DNA of 64,000 nucleotides from Candidatus Heimdallarchaeota archaeon (GCA_019056785.1 DXJV01000059.1:1-64000); one strand, 5' to 3'; shown: positions 23,763 through 48,608, counted from the first letter of the stretch. Translations and numbers: made by a program. The notes: generated by a model from the sequence alone, not told the origin.

Positions 23763-24287
23763 TTAATCGTCAGAAATTTTCCCAAGAGCAATTCGTGCAA
23801 TTTCATTGAAAACAAGATCAACGCCTAAGCCATTTGCAGAAGAAGTTTCAATATATCTTATGGCATCGTATTTCTTAATGGCCTCTTTTATGATTTCCTC
23901 TGTTATCAATGGGTCTCGCGGAAGATCACTTTTTCCTCCGACGATAATTATTTTGGTGTCAGCTTCCTTATCAATGAAATTATGCCAGGTTTCTAATCCT
24001 TTTATTGAAAGCGCCCGAGTTAAATCGAACATTAAAACAGCTACTACCGCGCCTTTTAAATAATTGTCAAAAATCCCCATCGATTTGAATTGTTCTTGTC
24101 CACCTAAATCCCAAACACTTAGGGAAATATCTTCTCCTTGATAACTCATCTGATGAATATAGAATCCCACGCCGATAGTTATTTTTGTTGTGTCGATGAA
24201 TTCCCCTGTCAGATACCGCTGGATTAACGTTGTTTTACCAACACCTCCATCGCCACCAAATACCACTTTTGCAATGATTTTTGACAA
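23763..24287 (-). CDS. Rab-like small GTPase
   Basis: GDGGVGKT, ITIGV, WDLGGQEQF, GGKSD, ETSSA. No C-terminal Cys motif. Confidence 0.9.
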   Translation of the reverse strand: MSKIIAKVVFGGDGGVGKTTLIQRYLTGEFIDTTKITIGVGFYIHQMSYQGEDISLSVWDLGGQEQFKSMGIFDNYLKGAVVAVLMFDLTRALSIKGLETWHNFIDKEADTKIIIVGGKSDLPRDPLITEEIIKEAIKKYDAIRYIETSSANGLGVDLVFNEIARIALGKISDD

Positions 24288-24427: not shown

Positions 24428-25240
24428 TTAGTGAATTTTCTCAATTGTGACATTTAATCTATCGAGAATTTTAGACATTTCGCTAATTTCTGTCACCGAG
24501 ACGACTTTCAATTTGTTTTTAAACACACTCGAGTTCAATTTGGAAGCGCTTTTATAGATTTGTCGTCGCCGCCAAATAGAGGGGTCAGGATGATAGAAAA
24601 GTATCGATAAGGTGTTTTTATTTTTATCAGCAACAAGGAACACATCGCTTGCTGGTATCTTTTTCCCAATCAATTCTTTTGGTGAGCCATCATCTAAAAT
24701 GGTGAAAATCCTTGGTAATTTGCCTGAGAAAAGCAAGCCCATTTTGTAGGATAGATCTTTCAAGTTTGCTTGAGTCAAATCACTCTCTTTTGTAATATCT
24801 CGAACAATTACTGAGAAATAAGGTTTAATTAGCCCGTAAGCATCCAGAATTTCTCGTGTATAATCCTCTTTAAAGAGGAGAAACATAATGCATTTCCTGC
24901 CAAATTCCCTAATGCGATGGTCGGCTGACTCTTCAGATTCAACATCAAATGTAATTGCTAGCGCTCGGTAGCTGGGTGCATCTGGTACTGGCAAAGGACC
25001 AAACGACCGTTTATCATCCATTGTGTCAAAGATTTGTGTTTTCTTCTCCTTTAGGGTCTTCCCGGAAGAACCTTCATCCAATCCAACTATGGTCATCCCT
25101 TCAACTGCTAAAGTCAAAGTTTGTTCTTCAGTCAAGTCTGTATCGTTGTAAATAACTGTTGGTCCGCTATCTTCGAACGTTACAAAGACAATTCCTAGCA
25201 AATAATCCTTCATTGATTCTGATTCAGCCATGTTCATCAA
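24428..25240 (-). CDS. Putative uDENN/longin-like N-terminal domain fused to a gelsolin-like C-terminal domain
   Basis: N-terminal IVFVTFEDSGPTVIY...FGPLPVP...ALAITF...DHR resembles uDENN/NPRL2-type longins. C-terminal DVFLVADKNKNTLSILF...SIWRRRQIYKSASKL resembles single Asgard gelsolin domains. Pattern recognition only. Confidence 0.5.
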   Translation of the reverse strand: MMNMAESESMKDYLLGIVFVTFEDSGPTVIYNDTDLTEEQTLTLAVEGMTIVGLDEGSSGKTLKEKKTQIFDTMDDKRSFGPLPVPDAPSYRALAITFDVESEESADHRIREFGRKCIMFLLFKEDYTREILDAYGLIKPYFSVIVRDITKESDLTQANLKDLSYKMGLLFSGKLPRIFTILDDGSPKELIGKKIPASDVFLVADKNKNTLSILFYHPDPSIWRRRQIYKSASKLNSSVFKNKLKVVSVTEISEMSKILDRLNVTIEKIH

Positions 25241-25350
25241 CCTTTTTTTCTAACAATTTTTCTCCTTCAATTCTTTTAATTGTATTCACTTATTGTTTTA
25301 CAATTATAAATCTGTTTTTCTTCAGTCATATAACTGCATTTACTTTGCTT

Positions 25351-26313
25351 TTAACTTATCACTTCTTCGTCTTTTTTACTCTCTTCAATGAGATTTTCAA
25401 TTGCTATGCGACCATTTTCGCCTTCTGTTAAGAAGATATCAAGAATCATTTCAGCAATTTGTTTTGCTTTACCCAAAGCATCACCACGTTCTACAAAAAG
25501 ACAACAAATTTTCTCTTTGCGAGTGACTAGGACCATTGAATAGTCACCAACAGTAACAACATCGAGAAAACTTGATTCTTTGAAAAGGGTTCTCGTCATG
25601 CTATTTAATGCAGAGAGAAGGCCGGTAATAAGAACGGCATCTTCGCTTTTATTAATAATGTTTGAGAATTGTGCATCGAAATCAAGCAAACCATTTACAT
25701 CATAAATTAATACTCGATGAACAGTTACACTCTCATGATATGCTTCGTAATCCATTAGCTTTGAAACGAACCAGTCAAATGCTCGATAAACACCATCACC
25801 GGTCAAAATGGTGCAAATCTCAAAGTGGAAGCTTCGAGGATCGTTTGGCGAGGAAATTTTCCCAAGGTCAAAGAAGGACAATGCCTTATTCAAATTAATC
25901 TTTCGCTCGGGATTGCGTTTGTTTATCAATGTTAATAAAGGAATGTTGGAAGGAATTTTATCAATGATTTTATGGAAATTCTCAGTAGAGTTCCGCAAAG
26001 ACTCGTCAGTCTCACCATTGATAACATAAACCACTCCATCTGCAATATTAAGAAAATACTCGATTATACGCTCGTCATTCAAGATTTCTTTACCCAAATC
26101 AATGAGTTTAAACCATTCAGTACCATAGGAAATGTCAATCCAATTGAATGCCGTTTCAGGAAAGACTTTGTCTCTGTTTGATGATAAGAGATAGTAAAGT
26201 AAAGTGGTTTTTCCGGAACCTTTTTCTCCCAAGAGAAGAACCCAAGGAATGGAATGCTTTGCATTCTGAAGAAAAGCAGTAAATGCTTCAACGGACTTTT
26301 TCAGATTTTTCAT
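25351..26313 (-). CDS. Degenerate Arf-like small GTPase fused to a C-terminal longin domain
   Basis: GEKGSGKT intact, G3 DLGKE, G4 NKRN. C-terminal VLIYDVNG...LITGLLSALNSM...VTVGDYSMVLV longin pattern. Confidence 0.75.
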   Translation of the reverse strand: MKNLKKSVEAFTAFLQNAKHSIPWVLLLGEKGSGKTTLLYYLLSSNRDKVFPETAFNWIDISYGTEWFKLIDLGKEILNDERIIEYFLNIADGVVYVINGETDESLRNSTENFHKIIDKIPSNIPLLTLINKRNPERKINLNKALSFFDLGKISSPNDPRSFHFEICTILTGDGVYRAFDWFVSKLMDYEAYHESVTVHRVLIYDVNGLLDFDAQFSNIINKSEDAVLITGLLSALNSMTRTLFKESSFLDVVTVGDYSMVLVTRKEKICCLFVERGDALGKAKQIAEMILDIFLTEGENGRIAIENLIEESKKDEEVIS

Positions 26314-26432
26314 AAGAGTCTCCCTTTCATCTTTGTAAATTATATTTACTTCAAAGTTTTTTAAATGTTCTTTTTGATAGTTTTGAAGGAAAAATCTCTT
26401 CTTTCGGTTTAGGAGAGGTTTTTAACCTTGTT

Positions 26433-27395
26433 TTAAGAGATAGCATCTAATGGGAAATAATTGGAAATAACTTTTTCGAGTGAAATTTGGTGCCCCTTTA
26501 AGTAATCCATCTCAATTGATTCGAAAATCCTGCTTGATATTGTTAAAACTCTACTAACAGGATCATTAACATCAATTAGAATCCCCATAACAAATAATTT
26601 GTTTTTAGTGATTACCAGTTGAAAGTCATTCATGATTTCCAGAACGGTCACTGCTTCATTATAGTCTCGCATTTGTTTAGCAAACCGTTCGGTTTCTTTT
26701 ATTGATTCCCTGTAAGCATTTGCTATCTTTGCCTGTTGGGTTGGGTTGCCAAAAATGGCATGATCTAACTCTTTAGCATTTGCATCAAAAATTGCTGCGG
26801 CATATATTTTAACATGCCAGGTTGGGATACTGCTATCTTTTGAAACGACATCAACAAGCCAATCCCAGGCTGTAAACAATCCTTCACCGGTTAAGGCTGA
26901 GCATCGAAACAGGTTGAATGGTCGTTCACCTCGGGTCATCTTATGAAGCTCCAGTGCTTCCATGACCTCTAAAGTTGATGCAGCTTCCTCTTTGTCTGAT
27001 TTATTAGCCAGGAACAAGATGGGTGCATTTGGGTCAGTGTTAGCCAAGGATTCATAAAAGACTTCTTTTGCAAGGTGGAATCGTTTTTGGTCTGCAGCAT
27101 CCACAACAAAGACTATTACAGATGCTTTTGTGACGAATTTCTTCCACAAAGTCTTACGTATTGGTGCATGCCCACCAAGGTCCCAAACAACGAATTCGAG
27201 TGTTCGGTAGCGATAAACCTCAATATTAACCCCAAAAGTTGGTTTAGAGAGTGTGTACTCTGATCGGAGAATGCGTTTCATAATGGTCGTTTTGCCAGCG
27301 GCATCTAAACCAATGATTGCTACATGTTGCTTAGCTTGCTCGCCCTCTTGGGCTTTTTTTCTGTCAGCACTTATTAATCTTCTAAGGAAACTCAA
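26433..27395 (-). CDS. Arf-like small GTPase with an N-terminal amphipathic segment and a C-terminal longin/roadblock-like domain
   Basis: GLDAAGKT (Arf signature), PTFGVN, WDLGGH, ANKSD, CSALTGEGL. A 125-aa alpha/beta extension follows. Confidence 0.85.
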   Translation of the reverse strand: MSFLRRLISADRKKAQEGEQAKQHVAIIGLDAAGKTTIMKRILRSEYTLSKPTFGVNIEVYRYRTLEFVVWDLGGHAPIRKTLWKKFVTKASVIVFVVDAADQKRFHLAKEVFYESLANTDPNAPILFLANKSDKEEAASTLEVMEALELHKMTRGERPFNLFRCSALTGEGLFTAWDWLVDVVSKDSSIPTWHVKIYAAAIFDANAKELDHAIFGNPTQQAKIANAYRESIKETERFAKQMRDYNEAVTVLEIMNDFQLVITKNKLFVMGILIDVNDPVSRVLTISSRIFESIEMDYLKGHQISLEKVISNYFPLDAIS

Positions 27396-27578: not shown

Positions 27579-28700
27579 TTAACTTTTTAAATGCTTTCGA
27601 ACATCCCGCGCAATCATTTCGGGTGAAGCGGCTGCAATAGGTTCGCGGTGAAGCAGCTCCATGAAACCTGTGTCGTTGGTATAATTTGGCATTAAAGTTG
27701 GACGACTAATAATCCTCAAATTAAGTCGATAAAATTTTTCGAGGGATTCATTTATTGGCCCACAATAGAGTGCCATATTAACTGCTGTTACTCCTCTACC
27801 ATGATATAATGCCCTAAATACCTGCACAAGCTCCTCTGCTAAAGCACCAACTTCTTCGTCCGAAAATTTTGTTATATCTGTTTTGGGGATTTTGATGATT
27901 CCTGTCAATTCATCTTTTCCAATGGGCGAAAAGGTTGCCGTCCAAGTCATAAAATCATTTTCAGTTATAAAGCGTTGATCTAATTCTTTCTCAGACTCGA
28001 GTAAATCCAACCAGTAATTCCTCCCTTTTGTTTCAGGAGTAGTTGTTGCGTTGTAATAATCCAGGCTTTTTGTAAGGAGCAAATCGGTGAGGTAAGTTGG
28101 TTTGTCATCAAGAATAATTTGAATGTGGGGATGAATAATTGATGAAGCGGAAGGTGGGAGAAAATTGAAGTTTATACTCGGGAATTTCAATTCCGGATTT
28201 AATTTATACACTGCCTTGAAGTATTTTATTGATCCAAGAATTGCATCTCGCCAAATAGCTGGCGAAAAATCTGGCAGGTTCGTAAAATGTTTTGAGCCGA
28301 GGGTAACTACTGCATGATTCTGTGAGAAAACAAATAGATTGGGGAAGACTATAATTTCGCCTATGCTAATTCGTTCTTCAAGAGCCAATTCCTCAGGAAA
28401 TTTAGGCGTGCTTTGTTTTAAAAAATTGGAACAGAAAAAGCATTTCTTGCTGGAAGCCTCAACGATTTTTTGTAAATTTGCTTCAAAATTTTCTCCTGGG
28501 AGTGTGGCTTGTTTCACGCGTTCTGCTCGTAAGGCATTTATTCGGGAAGGGATTTTCAGTAATGGATCGTATCTTCGCTCAATTTTTTGCTGCACAAGCT
28601 TAAATCCTTCCAAAGGGCTTCTAATTGTTGCTATAGCAATATCTTTTTCAAAGAGGATTTTTCCTTTTCCTTTCACGATTTCTTTCTTTGATGCTTCCAT
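27579..28700 (-). CDS. galT: Galactose-1-phosphate uridylyltransferase family (HIT-like)
   Basis: RYDPL, CFFC zinc site, VFPNLF, ASSIIHPHIQ (HxHxQ). Confidence 0.8.
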   Translation of the reverse strand: MEASKKEIVKGKGKILFEKDIAIATIRSPLEGFKLVQQKIERRYDPLLKIPSRINALRAERVKQATLPGENFEANLQKIVEASSKKCFFCSNFLKQSTPKFPEELALEERISIGEIIVFPNLFVFSQNHAVVTLGSKHFTNLPDFSPAIWRDAILGSIKYFKAVYKLNPELKFPSINFNFLPPSASSIIHPHIQIILDDKPTYLTDLLLTKSLDYYNATTTPETKGRNYWLDLLESEKELDQRFITENDFMTWTATFSPIGKDELTGIIKIPKTDITKFSDEEVGALAEELVQVFRALYHGRGVTAVNMALYCGPINESLEKFYRLNLRIISRPTLMPNYTNDTGFMELLHREPIAAASPEMIARDVRKHLKS

Positions 28701-43316: not shown

Positions 43317-46300
43317 TTACTGGTCATAATAATTTTGATCATCAGAATAGTACTGTGAATAGTCTTGCTGTTGTTGTTCTCCTTCTTGAGAGTATTGTTG
43401 GTCTTGGGAATATTGATCAGGGTAAGAAAAGTCTACTTCTTGATAATAATGGTCAATTGGGGGTTGTTGATAGAACTCTTTGCGGAAACCAAAGATGCTT
43501 TCAACTAGTAGCGGTGCGGCTGAAAACTCATTTAAGTCTATAAGTTCAGAAGTGAGTTGGTGTTTGAAAGTGACCTCAAATTCATCAAGGAATCGTAATA
43601 CTAGTTCTTTCAAAATTGGTTTTACATCATTCACTAGTAAAATGGCATTGCCAAAATAACCAATGGCAACAATTAACCGCTTCTCACCGAACTCAAGCAC
43701 TTGGGTTTGCTGTTCAAGATCCGTTTCGCCTGTAATTTCTCTAAGAATTCCAACAATGCCGGTGAGAGCACCACCAAAGAGTTGTTCGTCTTCAAACAAG
43801 TCTTTGGAGTAGGGAACATATGTAAGCGTCAAACCATTTTTAGTGACGTAAGCTACTGCTTCCAAGCTTTTTTGCCAGCCTTTATTAATGCGTTTTTTCT
43901 TTGTCGCAACGACCAAAATGGTAGAAAAGATGATTGCAATTATCAATCCCCCTCCCACCGGGAGAACAATGGTGTAGAGGTTCTCTTTCAACCATTGGAA
44001 TAAGGGGCTAGCCGACCCTCCGTTGTTTCCTGAAGCCATCTTCAACTCTAAGGGATAGGTAGTTGTTTGAAGGGAATTACCAGCGCTGTCTGTTATAATA
44101 AAGCTTAATGTAAAGTTCCCTTCGCCAAGAGTAGATAAATTAAGAGATGTAGTAAAAATATAAATGCCATTTAGTCCTTGGACCAGGGTCATCTGAATTG
44201 TTTCATTTATGCCATTCCCTGCAATAACTAAGCTAATTGATGCTACCCCATAATTGTCTTGAGCTGAGAGTGAAATATTAATCATATTTGCACTAGTGTT
44301 TGTAGAAAGTTCGAATTCATTTTTATAGTTTGATAATACACGATCGCCAAAGATGATGGAACCAAAAATGCTTGGATCAACTTTATCAATTATTACTTCA
44401 ATAACAAGTGTTCTTCCACGATCAGCGGTGTCATAAACAGTGATTGTAAGATTATGGTGTTCGCCGGGAGCAACGAAGTTATCTTCGGTGACATTTACTT
44501 CAAGCCAGAAAGGTTGGTCAAGGATGTTACCAACATAGCTCTTATAATAAACTACTACTTGTCCATCGGCTATTACCTGGACTTCTTTCACACCAAGCCG
44601 GGTATCAAAAACTGTGAGGTTTATAATGAAATTGGGGTTGTTAGTAACATAGCTTTGAGGAATATTCACAAAAAATTCAGGTGCCTGCGGATAAAGTTCA
44701 ACAGTGATTGTCGCTTTTTTAGTGTTATGTGCAGCATCAAAAGCTTCAACAGTAATGTTATGATGGCCATCAGCAAAAGAAGAAACGTCAAAGAATTGTG
44801 CAGTAGTCAAGTCGTTAAAGGTGCCCATGAAAGTAGTGTTAATCCAGACATTGTATCCTGCAATTCCTGACCCGGAATCAAAAGCAGACCATTCAACATA
44901 CAAATTATCTTCCAGAATTAACTCGAGGTTATTGGGAGTTAATATCGCAACGCTTGGCGCTAATTGATCGATCCAGACAAAACGCATGTCGACAAACTGG
45001 AAGCTACTTCCAATTAATACTGCAATTGTCACATTGAAAACGGGGAAGTCCGAGGGATTGATAGCTCCAAAATCCACAATTGTTGATAAAGTGGTATTGC
45101 TATATGCCCCATATAAGGTTCCATTAACAAAAACATAAAACTGGTCAACAAAGATGTTTTTCACATTCCAGGTGAAATTAACTGTTGTGGAATAAGAATA
45201 ACTCGAGAATTCTATGGGATCTATGATATTAAAGGAGGGGGCGAGAGTATTGTGTTGAACAGAAATTGTTTGTTCAGTAAAATGACCTATATAATCTATA
45301 ACTCGAATAGTAATAGTTGAAGAAGCATTAGCAGGAATGGTAAACTCATAAAAACTACTTGAGGGGTCAGTTAAAGTATCAATTTGGAGACCATTAAGGA
45401 AAACGGCATATTCTTTAATACCCGTACCATTGTCATTTGCATCCCAGAAAACCGTCACAACTTCCGAACTGGTAAGAAAACCATCTTCTGGTGAAGTGAT
45501 TTCTAAGGAAGGTGCGAAGGTATCAAGAGCAATTGTGTAGTAATCCAAAGCATAATTTCCTGCTTTGTCCCATGCCATTATTAAAATTTCATTAAAGCCT
45601 TCGGAGAGAGTAATTGTGTCATTAAAAATTGTGTTATCATAAAAACTGTAGAAGATATCATTAATTTCTAACTCGAAATAATCAATACCACTCCCACCGC
45701 TATTGTCGACGCCGATCCATTCCACGAATAGGGACAGATTGTCAGTATAATACCAATTGTCTTCTTGCGGTAGGGTTAAAGGTTCAAGAGCAACTGTGGG
45801 AGTGACAGTATCTCGTGTAATCGTTATTGATCTTGACTTGTTATGCCCAACAGCATCTGAAGCAACCACTTGAATTTGATATTGCTTATCAAAAGGCAAG
45901 TCTACAACAGTAGAATGTGAATCTGTAACGTCGATGCTTTTACCATCTAAATAAATCTGATAGAATTCAACCCACGACCATTCATCATAGCCATCCCACT
46001 CAAGATTAATTGATGAGGATTTAACTGCAGAATTATCGATGGGGGAAGTAATCTCTAAGTAGGGGGGAGAATTATCATAAATGATAAAGACAGTATCTTT
46101 ACCTTTATTGTTGCTTGTATCTTTGCCAATAATGGTTACATTGTAGATTCCTTCGCCGGCATCAAGAGTGAGCCAAAGTGAGGTGGCTGACTCGTCGCTT
46201 TTTTGTAGTGAGCCATTAACATAAGCATCAAAAAGAACATCGTCTCCTTCAGGGTCATAATAATCATACGAAACTTGAATCAGGTCGGAGTCGACGATAT

Positions 46301-48608
46301 CATCCCATTGTGGATCAGTAATCGTGACTTCAGGTGCACTTTGTGAGTATTCAATTGAAATGTAATCATGAGCAACAAAGCCAAGAACATCATAGGCATA
46401 TATTTCAATATCATTGCTCCCAAGAAGTAAACTAATATAGGCACCTCGTTGACCCGCACCAGCACGAGTTTGGAAGGCACCATTGATATAAATGTCGAAA
46501 AACTCCATTGGATTGGAGTCATTAGAGATAGACCATTGGATAAGAAGACTTTCTCGGTTGGAAGTGTAACCAGAGGAGGGAGAAGTGAAGGAGACGCTGG
46601 GAGGATTACCAATACCGAGAATGATGATTTGCCCGGTATAATCACCGATGATGGCTTCCAAATCATCATCTTCATCGATATCATAACCAATAATTGAGCT
46701 CTTGGCTCCAATAGTTGCTCCGAGATCTCCTGACCATTCTTCAGTATAAACCAAATCCTTTGCGTAGGGTGTAGCATTTAAATTCGTAACTTGTAAAATT
46801 TTCACGGTACCGTTAGAACAACCAATGATTAATTCATTGTAAGTATCGTCATCAATATCAAAAACGGCTGCACCACCAGCAAAATTGGGGTTACTACCAT
46901 CATTTACATTAAATTCTAAGGGGATGGAACTGTCATTAAAAGTAAATTGGCCGAAGATCTTTACAGTATTTCTTCCAACGATTACTGTCTCGTTTTCACC
47001 GTCATTATCTACATCTGCAACAACAATTGTATGGCCGAAATAGTCAAGTGTATTGTTATGTGACTCGGCTGGAAGATCATCTTCTGGAGTATAAACAGTA
47101 CTATTAGTTGGATTGTCATAATAGCTTGTGCCATCCATTTCGATGATTTGGAGCATTGTTGGAGAAATAGAATTGGTATCATTAATCTGCGAGAAGAAAA
47201 GCAATTCATTCCAAGCATCTCCATCCATATCAGCAATTTCGAGCTCATGAATTCTAGAGACTTCTTCGCGGTTAATTTTGTAAGGAGTTAAATAACCAGC
47301 TAAAGTGAATTTGTCCGGTGGTTTTGAATAAGTTAAGACTCCTATTTGTCCTGTTTCATCACCAAAAAGGATTTGTTTGGAGCCGTCATTTTTATTCATT
47401 GCATCTCCAATTGCAATATGCCCCAACAATTTATCGCCATAGTTATCAAAAATAACACTTGATTCATCAAAATCTTTTGTTACATCATTCCAGTCATATA
47501 ATCGACCGATGCGACTATCTGAACCGACACCGTAAAGCTCATCCTTTCCATCCTCATCGAAATCATAAGCAGCTATTTCAGTGATCTGAAAGAGATCGCT
47601 GTAGTGTTCCGATTCCCACGAACCCCAAATACGTGTAAGTTTTCCATTAACATAATCAAAAATAGCTATTAACTTATCATCTCCAGAGACACGACGATTG
47701 GAAACCACAACAAGCTCTTTATCTCCATCGCCATTAATGTCGGCAAGAGTCAAGTAGGTATTATTACCAGGTCCGATGGCACCATCTTTTATATTGAAAT
47801 TATCTTCAATGATATATTCTTCAAAGAAATGCTGATCACCTAAATGAATATCACCCCATTGGCTAGGGTCATTTGCGAAGGAAGCAATATTGTCAGGGAC
47901 AACGGGCCAAGTGATGAAATCACTAAGAGTGGAGAGGTCTGAAGTAGCAATAACACTCCAACCAAGAATTTTATCGTTCACAGGAGTGGAATAAGGAATC
48001 TTAATCTCATACTGTCGATGGGCAGTAAGATTGTTAAAGGCAGAAGTTGAAAAGCCAGTATCGACAATAATCCCACTCGAGGCGAGAGCAATGCCTGGAC
48101 CTGCTTCTTCGATAAAGACCCAGTCCTGTAAAACGTAACTATAACTGTATAAGTCAACAACTTCTATTCCACTATTGTAACGATACCTTAGTCGATAATC
48201 TGCTGTGCTCAGCCAACCATTATGGTCCAAATCAAGATATACCACCATCCCAAAAGTGGAAGATGGAACCTCTACTATGAAACTCGTACAATCCAAAGCA
48301 ATATACACCGTAACATTATCATTTTGAACAAGTAGTTTTCCTTCGGAATTTCCCTTTTCATTAAATAAATTATATACCGCTGCAGAGGTCCATTCTTGAG
48401 AGCGGTCATAAAGCTTGAAATCAATATTCCCGTCTATGGTCGGAGCGGTCTCATTCCAGATGGAGAAAAGCTCTATCGGTTCTGCAACAGGAGAATGTCC
48501 TTGAATATGAAACACTTGAAATTGATTGATAGTAAGAAAAGTAGTAATAAAGAATAGTGCAACACAAATTGCCAATTTTGATTCTCTTCTAATTTTAAAA
48601 TTATACAT
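43317..48608 (-). CDS. Giant single-pass surface protein: signal peptide, sugar-binding-like domain, 7x FG-GAP-like propeller, about 9 Ig-like repeats, TM, cytoplasmic longin domain, Q/Y/D-rich tail
   Basis: APTIDG N-domain. Seven DxDxDG-type loops. Repeats P.xxI(T)SP...W...D..G(N). TM IVLPVGGGLIIAIIFSTILVVA then KKKR. Longin pattern YVTKNG...QLFGGALTGIVGILREI...LEFGEKRLIV. Confidence 0.8.
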   Translation of the reverse strand: MYNFKIRRESKLAICVALFFITTFLTINQFQVFHIQGHSPVAEPIELFSIWNETAPTIDGNIDFKLYDRSQEWTSAAVYNLFNEKGNSEGKLLVQNDNVTVYIALDCTSFIVEVPSSTFGMVVYLDLDHNGWLSTADYRLRYRYNSGIEVVDLYSYSYVLQDWVFIEEAGPGIALASSGIIVDTGFSTSAFNNLTAHRQYEIKIPYSTPVNDKILGWSVIATSDLSTLSDFITWPVVPDNIASFANDPSQWGDIHLGDQHFFEEYIIEDNFNIKDGAIGPGNNTYLTLADINGDGDKELVVVSNRRVSGDDKLIAIFDYVNGKLTRIWGSWESEHYSDLFQITEIAAYDFDEDGKDELYGVGSDSRIGRLYDWNDVTKDFDESSVIFDNYGDKLLGHIAIGDAMNKNDGSKQILFGDETGQIGVLTYSKPPDKFTLAGYLTPYKINREEVSRIHELEIADMDGDAWNELLFFSQINDTNSISPTMLQIIEMDGTSYYDNPTNSTVYTPEDDLPAESHNNTLDYFGHTIVVADVDNDGENETVIVGRNTVKIFGQFTFNDSSIPLEFNVNDGSNPNFAGGAAVFDIDDDTYNELIIGCSNGTVKILQVTNLNATPYAKDLVYTEEWSGDLGATIGAKSSIIGYDIDEDDDLEAIIGDYTGQIIILGIGNPPSVSFTSPSSGYTSNRESLLIQWSISNDSNPMEFFDIYINGAFQTRAGAGQRGAYISLLLGSNDIEIYAYDVLGFVAHDYISIEYSQSAPEVTITDPQWDDIVDSDLIQVSYDYYDPEGDDVLFDAYVNGSLQKSDESATSLWLTLDAGEGIYNVTIIGKDTSNNKGKDTVFIIYDNSPPYLEITSPIDNSAVKSSSINLEWDGYDEWSWVEFYQIYLDGKSIDVTDSHSTVVDLPFDKQYQIQVVASDAVGHNKSRSITITRDTVTPTVALEPLTLPQEDNWYYTDNLSLFVEWIGVDNSGGSGIDYFELEINDIFYSFYDNTIFNDTITLSEGFNEILIMAWDKAGNYALDYYTIALDTFAPSLEITSPEDGFLTSSEVVTVFWDANDNGTGIKEYAVFLNGLQIDTLTDPSSSFYEFTIPANASSTITIRVIDYIGHFTEQTISVQHNTLAPSFNIIDPIEFSSYSYSTTVNFTWNVKNIFVDQFYVFVNGTLYGAYSNTTLSTIVDFGAINPSDFPVFNVTIAVLIGSSFQFVDMRFVWIDQLAPSVAILTPNNLELILEDNLYVEWSAFDSGSGIAGYNVWINTTFMGTFNDLTTAQFFDVSSFADGHHNITVEAFDAAHNTKKATITVELYPQAPEFFVNIPQSYVTNNPNFIINLTVFDTRLGVKEVQVIADGQVVVYYKSYVGNILDQPFWLEVNVTEDNFVAPGEHHNLTITVYDTADRGRTLVIEVIIDKVDPSIFGSIIFGDRVLSNYKNEFELSTNTSANMINISLSAQDNYGVASISLVIAGNGINETIQMTLVQGLNGIYIFTTSLNLSTLGEGNFTLSFIITDSAGNSLQTTTYPLELKMASGNNGGSASPLFQWLKENLYTIVLPVGGGLIIAIIFSTILVVATKKKRINKGWQKSLEAVAYVTKNGLTLTYVPYSKDLFEDEQLFGGALTGIVGILREITGETDLEQQTQVLEFGEKRLIVAIGYFGNAILLVNDVKPILKELVLRFLDEFEVTFKHQLTSELIDLNEFSAAPLLVESIFGFRKEFYQQPPIDHYYQEVDFSYPDQYSQDQQYSQEGEQQQQDYSQYYSDDQNYYDQ

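Follow-up and report, generated by a model that had tools for sequence, protein, structure and literature searches.

Asgard archaea encode many small GTPases that resemble those of eukaryotes, and their partners and regulators are still to be found. At the locus described here two Arf-like genes stand one behind the other, and the initial annotation had read them as an active GTPase and a degenerate copy that would form an asymmetric heterodimer of one switch and one scaffold. Is the degenerate copy a conserved protein in its own right, and is it the partner of the active one?

Two Arf-like genes in a conserved locus

The window (the whole stretch of 64,000 nucleotides that was analysed) comes from an Asgard genome of the Heimdall group (2.87 Mb, 82% complete). 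Both open reading frames were found where the initial annotation had placed them, on the minus strand, each encoding 320 aa. The features of the locus are the following.

26433-27395, minus strand: gene B, 320 aa; active Arf-type GTPase with a C-terminal longin/roadblock-like domain
26436-26828, minus strand: C-terminal domain of B, residues 190-320, from the AF2 model
26390-26423, strand unassigned: inverted repeat with a T run directly after the B stop codon, a pattern match only
25351-26313, minus strand: gene A, 320 aa; Arf-derived pseudo-GTPase candidate with a C-terminal domain as in B
25354-25746, minus strand: C-terminal domain of A, residues 190-320, homologous to the C-domain of B
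24428-25240, minus strand: orf270, 270 aa; third conserved gene of the B-A unit
23763-24287, minus strand: Ras/Rab-like small GTPase, 174 aa (Pfam Ras, 3.5e-35)

The gaps between B and A, A and orf270, and orf270 and the Ras-like gene are 119, 110 and 140 nt. For comparison we used two families of the same class, the family of the window (family 1) and a second one (family 3), which includes the Heimdallarchaeaceae and Ca. Heimdallarchaeum endolithica records. The equal length of A and B had been taken as a mark of the pair. It is true of this genome but coincidental, since orthologue lengths vary: family-1 A proteins have 316-327 aa and B proteins 319-324 aa, and the second-family counterparts 329-335 aa (A-like) and 334-339 aa (B-like).

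Gene B has the hallmarks of a working Arf-type GTPase

B matched Pfam Arf (PF00025) with an E-value of 2.4e-43 (148.1 bits, residues 17-183), and both B and A exceeded the gathering cut-off of 22.3 bits. Its best matches among PDB sequences were Arl1 and Arf1 (E 3e-30), and Pfam SRPRB was also matched (2.5e-13). The motifs are GLDAAGKT, PTFGVN, WDLGGH, NKSD and SALTG. We could thus confirm the reading of B as near-canonical Arf with His in place of the catalytic Gln: motifs G1-G5 and His76 were unchanged across 18 orthologues (68-95% identity). The second-family B-like protein (37-40% identity) retains the B motifs, including the His of DLGGH. Swaps between His and Gln recur within the archaeal family of B. 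Because the two residues interchange repeatedly, the His of B points to Sar1-like chemistry and is not evidence of Sar1 ancestry.

The AF2 model of B, built from a 69-sequence alignment, had a mean pLDDT of 88.9 and a pTM of 0.85, with a G domain at residues ~20-185 and a C-terminal domain at ~190-320. Superposition of the G domain on HodArfR1-GTP gave Z 28.1 and an rmsd of 2.5 A over 171 residues at 36% identity; Arf1 followed with Z 27.8 and Sar1 with Z 25.6 (superposed region, residues 19-188). Taken together, HodArfR1, Arf1, Arl1 and Arl6 matched B with Z 27-28 and rmsd 1.3-2.5 A over 163-171 residues. The N-terminus, MSFLRRLI, had been described as amphipathic. The segment SFLRRLI is invariant in orthologues and turns up again in the genome's small paralogues of Arf type. 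As to its amphipathic character, the helix is short, residues 1-18 have a model pLDDT <50, and the hydrophobic moment of 0.71 over 9-11 residues was matched by ~13% of shuffled sequences.

Gene A is a conserved paralogue with altered switches

A matched Pfam Arf at 3.3e-16 (59.7 bits, residues 24-185). A profile of its orthologues found Arf1 among PDB sequences at 4.5e-15, and the G domain is closest to Arf/Arl. Its motifs are GEKGSGKT, PETAFN, DLGKE, NKRN and TILTG. We found 34 close relatives with 54-99% identity (partial sequences counted), and in an alignment of 17 sequences the mean column identity was 76%, with 62 invariant positions.

The P-loop (G-x4-G-K-T) and Asp72 are kept in the orthologues, where N131 never varies and K132 hardly does. 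The Gly of DxxG is missing in every one of them, the family-1 motif being D-L-G-[KQRA], and an acidic residue occupies the position of the catalytic Gln/His. The switch-I Thr is lost from its Arf position in all A orthologues, with E, D or H there in family 1. The second-family A-like protein keeps G-x4-G-K-S, NKxD and the G5 serine; in it E-A-D-E-E replaces DxxG, and P, D or A stands at the switch-I Thr position. The description of A as having an intact P-loop with altered G2 and G3 therefore holds beyond this genome, as no orthologue in either family has DxxG. Judging from these alignments, the switch defects are ancestral to the A lineage; since the same dead switches are seen in both families, the active/dead asymmetry predates their split.

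The altered G4 motif, also part of the initial description, proved to be of a different kind. NKRN is present in this genome but is a local variant: many orthologues carry NKRD or NKKD, and the Asp position may hold D, N, A, E or Q. The G4 Asp is thus variable and not lost, and guanine-specific binding by A is uncertain for this reason. The loss of catalytic and switch residues is conserved under purifying selection, which makes A a candidate pseudo-GTPase.

Selection was estimated as dN/dS (NG86) over ten orthologous loci, with dS near saturation, so that the ratios are approximate: A 0.08, B 0.05, orf270 0.05 and the Ras-like gene 0.06, compared with 0.25 for the upstream flanking gene. Within A, the C-domain was the slowest-evolving part (0.06, against 0.12 for the G domain). 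Decay of the degenerate copy had been named at the outset as an outcome that would speak against a functional pair. A is not decaying by this measure, and its orthologues occur in 10 of the 11 genomes of its family.

The C-terminal domains are longin/roadblock-like

The C-domains of A and B are mutually homologous alpha/beta domains of ~130 aa. In the AF2 model of B the order of elements (residues 197-313) is beta-beta-alpha-beta-beta-beta-alpha-alpha, the longin order, with pLDDT >90 over most of the domain. The model of A has the same element order at low confidence in this domain (pLDDT ~45). Neither C-domain matched a Pfam family at E <= 10, and a 17-sequence profile of the domain found no meaningful match among PDB sequences. 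The profile did detect >30 further carriers in the source genome, with paralogue matches at E 1e-9 to 1e-3. One relative reached Pfam Fuz_longin_1, exactly over the matched region (26.5 bits, cut-off 26.1); two gave weak matches to Intu_longin_1 and one a weak match to Robl_LC7. A language-model search with the C-domain returned weak leads, at 0.80, to Robl_LC7, Gtr1_RagA and MAPKK1_Int. Between the two families the C-domains share ~30% identity each, and the G domains 46% (B) and 28% (A).

In Foldseek searches the full A and B models aligned to Rag/Gtr chains and to 8yl2 over 283-322 columns; the TM-scores were 0.4-0.5 because the domain orientations differ. We assign the C-domain to the longin/roadblock group, within which it is probably longin-like.

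A and B are old paralogues but not sister copies

A and B can be aligned over 317 residues, C-terminal domain included, with 22% identity (E 6e-19). They are members of a large set, the source genome having 43 Arf-profile matches. Proteins of the same build and roughly 310-320 aa are C75, C57, C74, C78 and C84, none of them in tandem with another. The nearest paralogue of B in the genome is C75 (E 2e-76), whereas A is matched only at 4e-17; the nearest paralogue of A is C74.

In maximum-likelihood trees A grouped with P0146, the second-family A-like representative (99 SH-aLRT), and B with the unlinked C75 type. Constraining A and B to group together made the tree worse by 78.6 log-likelihood units (p-AU 3.5e-5; LG+G4, 32 rows, with the tested group defined only once a first tree had been inspected). 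As the AU test rejects this grouping, the pair is not a simple tandem duplication. Of the ancient duplication proposed in the initial annotation, the age survives, in that A and B are old paralogues and the pair is older than the divergence of the two families; the sister relationship does not. That A and B are not sister paralogues also counts against a heterodimer.

Among 1.84 billion representative sequences the A type comprised one 50% cluster and P0146, and dozens of clusters had the build of G domain plus C-domain, mostly with canonical motifs. Other proteins with a degenerate G3 were C57 and C84 of the same genome and the representatives P0164 and P0227. A shared junction (T-G-x-G...A-x-D-W) leading into the C-domain had been noted in both A and B. 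We found nothing special in it: it is the G5 loop followed by alpha5, a family-wide Arf signature, and the Trp of AxDW showed no variation in family alignments of 60 and 69 sequences.

The conserved unit is a trio of genes

When 400 genomes of the phylum were searched with a profile, the A orthologues of family 1 mentioned above came up, and 28 of the 31 second-family genomes yielded a distant A-like gene (E 1e-39 to 1e-55). No A-type gene was found in the ~357 other genomes of the phylum searched in this way. Four genomes of the two families gave no match. In three of these (G021, G027 and G088) the locus is cut by a contig end, and the fourth (G029) has its orf270 match from base 2 of a contig onwards.

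The order upstream gene, B, A, orf270, Ras-like gene, all on one strand, was found at 9 of 9 family-1 loci in public genomes. At 5 of 5 second-family loci the order is B-like, A-like, orf270-like, with 37-40%, 29-32% and 38-40% identity, respectively, to the genes of the window. At the B/A/orf270 junctions there, neighbouring genes overlap by up to 4 nt or lie at most 12 nt apart; with start and stop codons abutting or overlapping in this way, the three genes form a true operon in the second family. The Ras-like gene has 78-84% identity in family 1, where it is as conserved as B, but did not adjoin the trio at the five second-family loci and is a neighbour in family 1 only. The conserved unit is therefore the trio B-A-orf270, joined in the window's family by a Ras-like GTPase. 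The two genes first proposed as a pair are indeed co-inherited, and translationally coupled in the second family, but the unit is larger than the pair by orf270.

In family 1 the gaps of 110-140 nt and the hairpin and T run after B mean that strict co-transcription is not assured. A TATA-like AT-rich stretch (pattern match) lies between this inverted repeat and A, which suggests that A may possess its own promoter in the window's family.

The third gene, orf270, lies directly downstream of A at all of the family-1 and second-family loci given above. It had no Pfam, NCBIfam or PDB match, and an Atlas search led to no cluster beyond its own Heimdall one. Profile-profile comparison found no relation to the C-domain of A and B (probability 0.4%). 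Relatives of orf270 also occur in four further families of the class (f4-f7) and in one other (f33), where they are not beside GTPase genes.

A proposed heterodimer and its alternatives

B, A and orf270 stay side by side, are coupled, evolve under equal constraint and complement each other in design, and are most simply seen as subunits of one complex. The reading that we favour, with a confidence a little above even, is that B and A form a heterodimer through their C-domains, B being the switch, A a nucleotide-holding half that does not switch, and orf270 a regulator or effector. B would cycle between GTP and GDP as an Arf/Sar1-type switch with His as the catalytic residue, and its short N-terminal helix may bring it into contact with the membrane. 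A would be a nucleotide-binding, non-switching paralogue. It keeps the Lys and Thr of the P-loop and the N-K of G4, and so probably still holds nucleotide; having lost the switch-I Thr and the DxxG Gly, which sense the gamma-phosphate, it would be unable to signal the presence of GTP or to hydrolyse it normally. The two proteins would lie side by side through their homologous longin/roadblock-type C-domains, as Rag/Gtr pairs do, with A as the fixed scaffold half. Edge-to-edge dimers that carry GTPases are typical of longin and roadblock domains (PMC10933270). Judging from gene linkage and this precedent, A and B probably heterodimerise. A complex prediction for the C-domains (B 185-320 with A 187-320) scored 0.01, the mark being 0.32, and speaks neither way.

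The heterodimer has competitors among arrangements that keep both proteins functional. A and B might homo-oligomerise separately and act in sequence, with A regulating B through the G domains in the manner of Arl13B-Arl3, or orf270 might bridge or regulate A and B; taken jointly, we consider these forms unlikely. As the genome has more than 30 C-domain carriers, A and B could each pair with themselves or with another carrier. The title of the Asgard RagA-like entry 8yl2 gives a homotetramer, A and B fall into separate subfamilies, the other long paralogues (including the degenerate C57 and C84) lack a tandem partner, and the fold matches include the Arl13B-Arl3 complex. Against this, B and A are tightly coupled in the second family and strictly co-inherited, as one would expect if two subunits are to be produced in equal numbers; a complex fits this better than a cascade.

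Could A and B pair in order to build, from their two C-domains, a longin platform whose heterodimeric surface binds a third small GTPase and regulates it as GEF or GAP? In the window's family the Ras-like protein encoded two genes downstream would be the client, and the models for such a platform are Mon1-Ccz1, Fuzzy-Inturned and the TRAPP longin pairs. We hold this to be improbable. The C-domain does have the longin order of secondary structure, and its relatives give marginal or weak matches to the first-longin Pfam families of FUZ/MON1/HPS1 and INTU/CCZ1/HPS4. The Ras-like gene is syntenic and well conserved at all family-1 loci, with the low dN/dS noted above. However, it is not beside the trio in the second family, the longin matches lie below or barely above threshold and come from proteins other than A and B, and the platform would leave the fully canonical, strongly conserved G domain of B unexplained.

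More speculatively, and in our estimate quite improbably, the trio could be a self-contained archaeal forerunner of the logic "GTPase pair plus longin regulator" seen in Rag-FLCN/GATOR1 and SRbeta-SRalpha, built on an Arf-type G domain. A permanently loaded pseudo-GTPase A would then set the state of B across a longin-longin interface, and orf270 would stand for a GAP, GEF or effector of a new kind.

That A is a decaying or functionless duplicate, as its altered G2, G3 and G4 motifs by themselves might suggest, is ruled out, at the level of sequence, by its dN/dS of 0.08, by intact frames in all orthologues with the high column identity and many invariant positions described above, and by survival of the lineage in both families, whose A proteins share 30% identity, their architecture and their place in the locus.

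The genome thus offers a matched set, an active Arf switch, its dead-switch paralogue and a 270-aa protein, kept across two divergent families, and this set opens the way to a three-protein reconstitution. If the favoured heterodimer is real, a division of labour between active and inactive GTPase subunits would have arisen in archaea on an Arf scaffold.

Comparison with known systems

The closest published parallel is with Asgard GTPases that are annotated as Arf, are Rag-like in build and are fused to longin/roadblock domains (Tran et al. 2024, PMC10933270). An operonic GTPase pair from Prometheoarchaeum MK-D1 was predicted by AF2 to form a heterodimer via its C-domains, resembling Gtr1-Gtr2 (PMC10933270). 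A and B resemble that pair in being Arf-annotated G domains with longin/roadblock fusions, encoded by two genes in one operon, and differ from it by the conserved dead-switch partner and the constant third gene, orf270. Since the A lineage was found in only two Heimdallarchaeial families among the 400 genomes, A-B is not the MK-D1 pair.

The initial annotation had likened A and B to RagA/RagC, and in architecture this is apt. Like Rag/Gtr proteins they have a two-domain build of ~300 aa and are two paralogues encoded or used together, and the full-length models matched Rag/Gtr chains in Foldseek at E 1e-11 to 1e-10. The likeness does not extend to the G domains, which are of the Arf family; neither A nor B matched Gtr1_RagA (PF04670) at E <= 0.01, and the C-domain in the B model has the longin order and not that of roadblock. 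Both subunits of Rag pairs are active GTPases. A, unlike either Rag subunit, is not built as a working GTPase, the switch-I Thr and the Gly of DxxG being absent from all its orthologues. LokiRagO of Lokiarchaeota (8yl2) is likewise an Asgard protein of G domain plus C-domain and aligned to both models over 283-307 columns in Foldseek, but it is homotetrameric by its entry title and shares only 13-15% identity.

The G domain of B found its best fold match in the ArfR1 proteins (HodArfR1, 8ouk; GerdArfR1, 8oum; bioRxiv 10.1101/2024.02.28.582541), which have a similar N-terminal motif. These are single-domain proteins (~175-185 aa) with a catalytic Gln, whereas B has His and adds a C-domain of 130 aa; flanking domains have been noted in the ArfR papers. 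With Sar1 and SRbeta B shares DLGGH in G3, His taking the Gln position, but it scores higher against Arf/Arl than against either of them. SRbeta binds the longin-like SRX domain of SRalpha, which brings together an Arf-type G domain and a longin-type domain, the combination proposed here. Mon1-Ccz1, Fuzzy-Inturned and HPS1-HPS4 are similar in that two paralogous longin carriers are used together; they differ in having no G domain of their own, and the C-domains of A and B have no direct Pfam match.

Both the architecture and the concept of Rag-like heterodimers encoded in operons have been described before (PMC10933270), and for this reason the gain from the present locus is moderate. What is new here, on the sequence comparisons, is a lineage-specific and anciently asymmetric GTPase pair that is accompanied by a conserved third gene.

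The C-terminal domain of the pair is a common module

A profile search of the genome found that the longin/roadblock-like domain at the C-terminus of both the Arf-type GTPase B (26433-27395, minus strand) and the pseudo-GTPase candidate A (25351-26313, minus strand) is a common module, present in more than 30 proteins. Example carriers, by contig, are:

C94:29598-31781
C54:5860-6516
C49:97400-98275
C72:18256-19530

TPR proteins of about 700 amino acids carry the domain at the C-terminus and proteins with wHTH or V4R domains at the N-terminus; stand-alone proteins of 87-146 amino acids also consist of it. The window's large surface protein (43317-48608) gave no match to the domain profile at E <= 0.1.

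By their sequence motifs, two further long GTPase paralogues in the genome have a degenerate G3 and an altered G4, and neither has a tandem partner:

C57:12687-13616, G3 DIIDS, G4 SKAD
C84:157685-158641, G3 IPPGQ, G4 HKQD

Organisation of B, A and orf270

The gene directly downstream of A, orf270 (24428-25240, minus strand), has three clear paralogues within the genome (E 6e-86 to 5e-18):

C49:57821-58681
C4:117-896
C11:137587-138348

The closest of these is flanked by DUF389, pilin and Band-7 genes, not by GTPases. Almost every family of the class has members of the orf270 family, but they adjoin the GTPase pair in only two.

Sequence patterns were examined in the two intergenic regions around A:

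26314-26432, between B and A
25241-25350, between A and orf270

Pattern matching placed a 13-bp hairpin and a T run directly 3' of the B stop codon, and AT-rich TATA-like stretches with GGAG-type ribosome-binding sites before both A and orf270. The counterparts of these three genes in the second, Heimdallarchaeaceae-type family abut or overlap. The two families may differ in how B-A-orf270 is transcribed.

Flanking genes

The Ras-like GTPase (23763-24287, minus strand) equals B in conservation, despite having GGKSD at the expected NKxD, with the G4 Asn replaced. The upstream 373-aa gene (27579-28700), whose synteny is confined to the window's family, had no Pfam or NCBIfam match. It encodes CFFC and HPHIQ motifs, which we tentatively compare with two features of GalT/HIT-type nucleotidyl transferases, their zinc site and their His-x-His-x-Gln active site, respectively.
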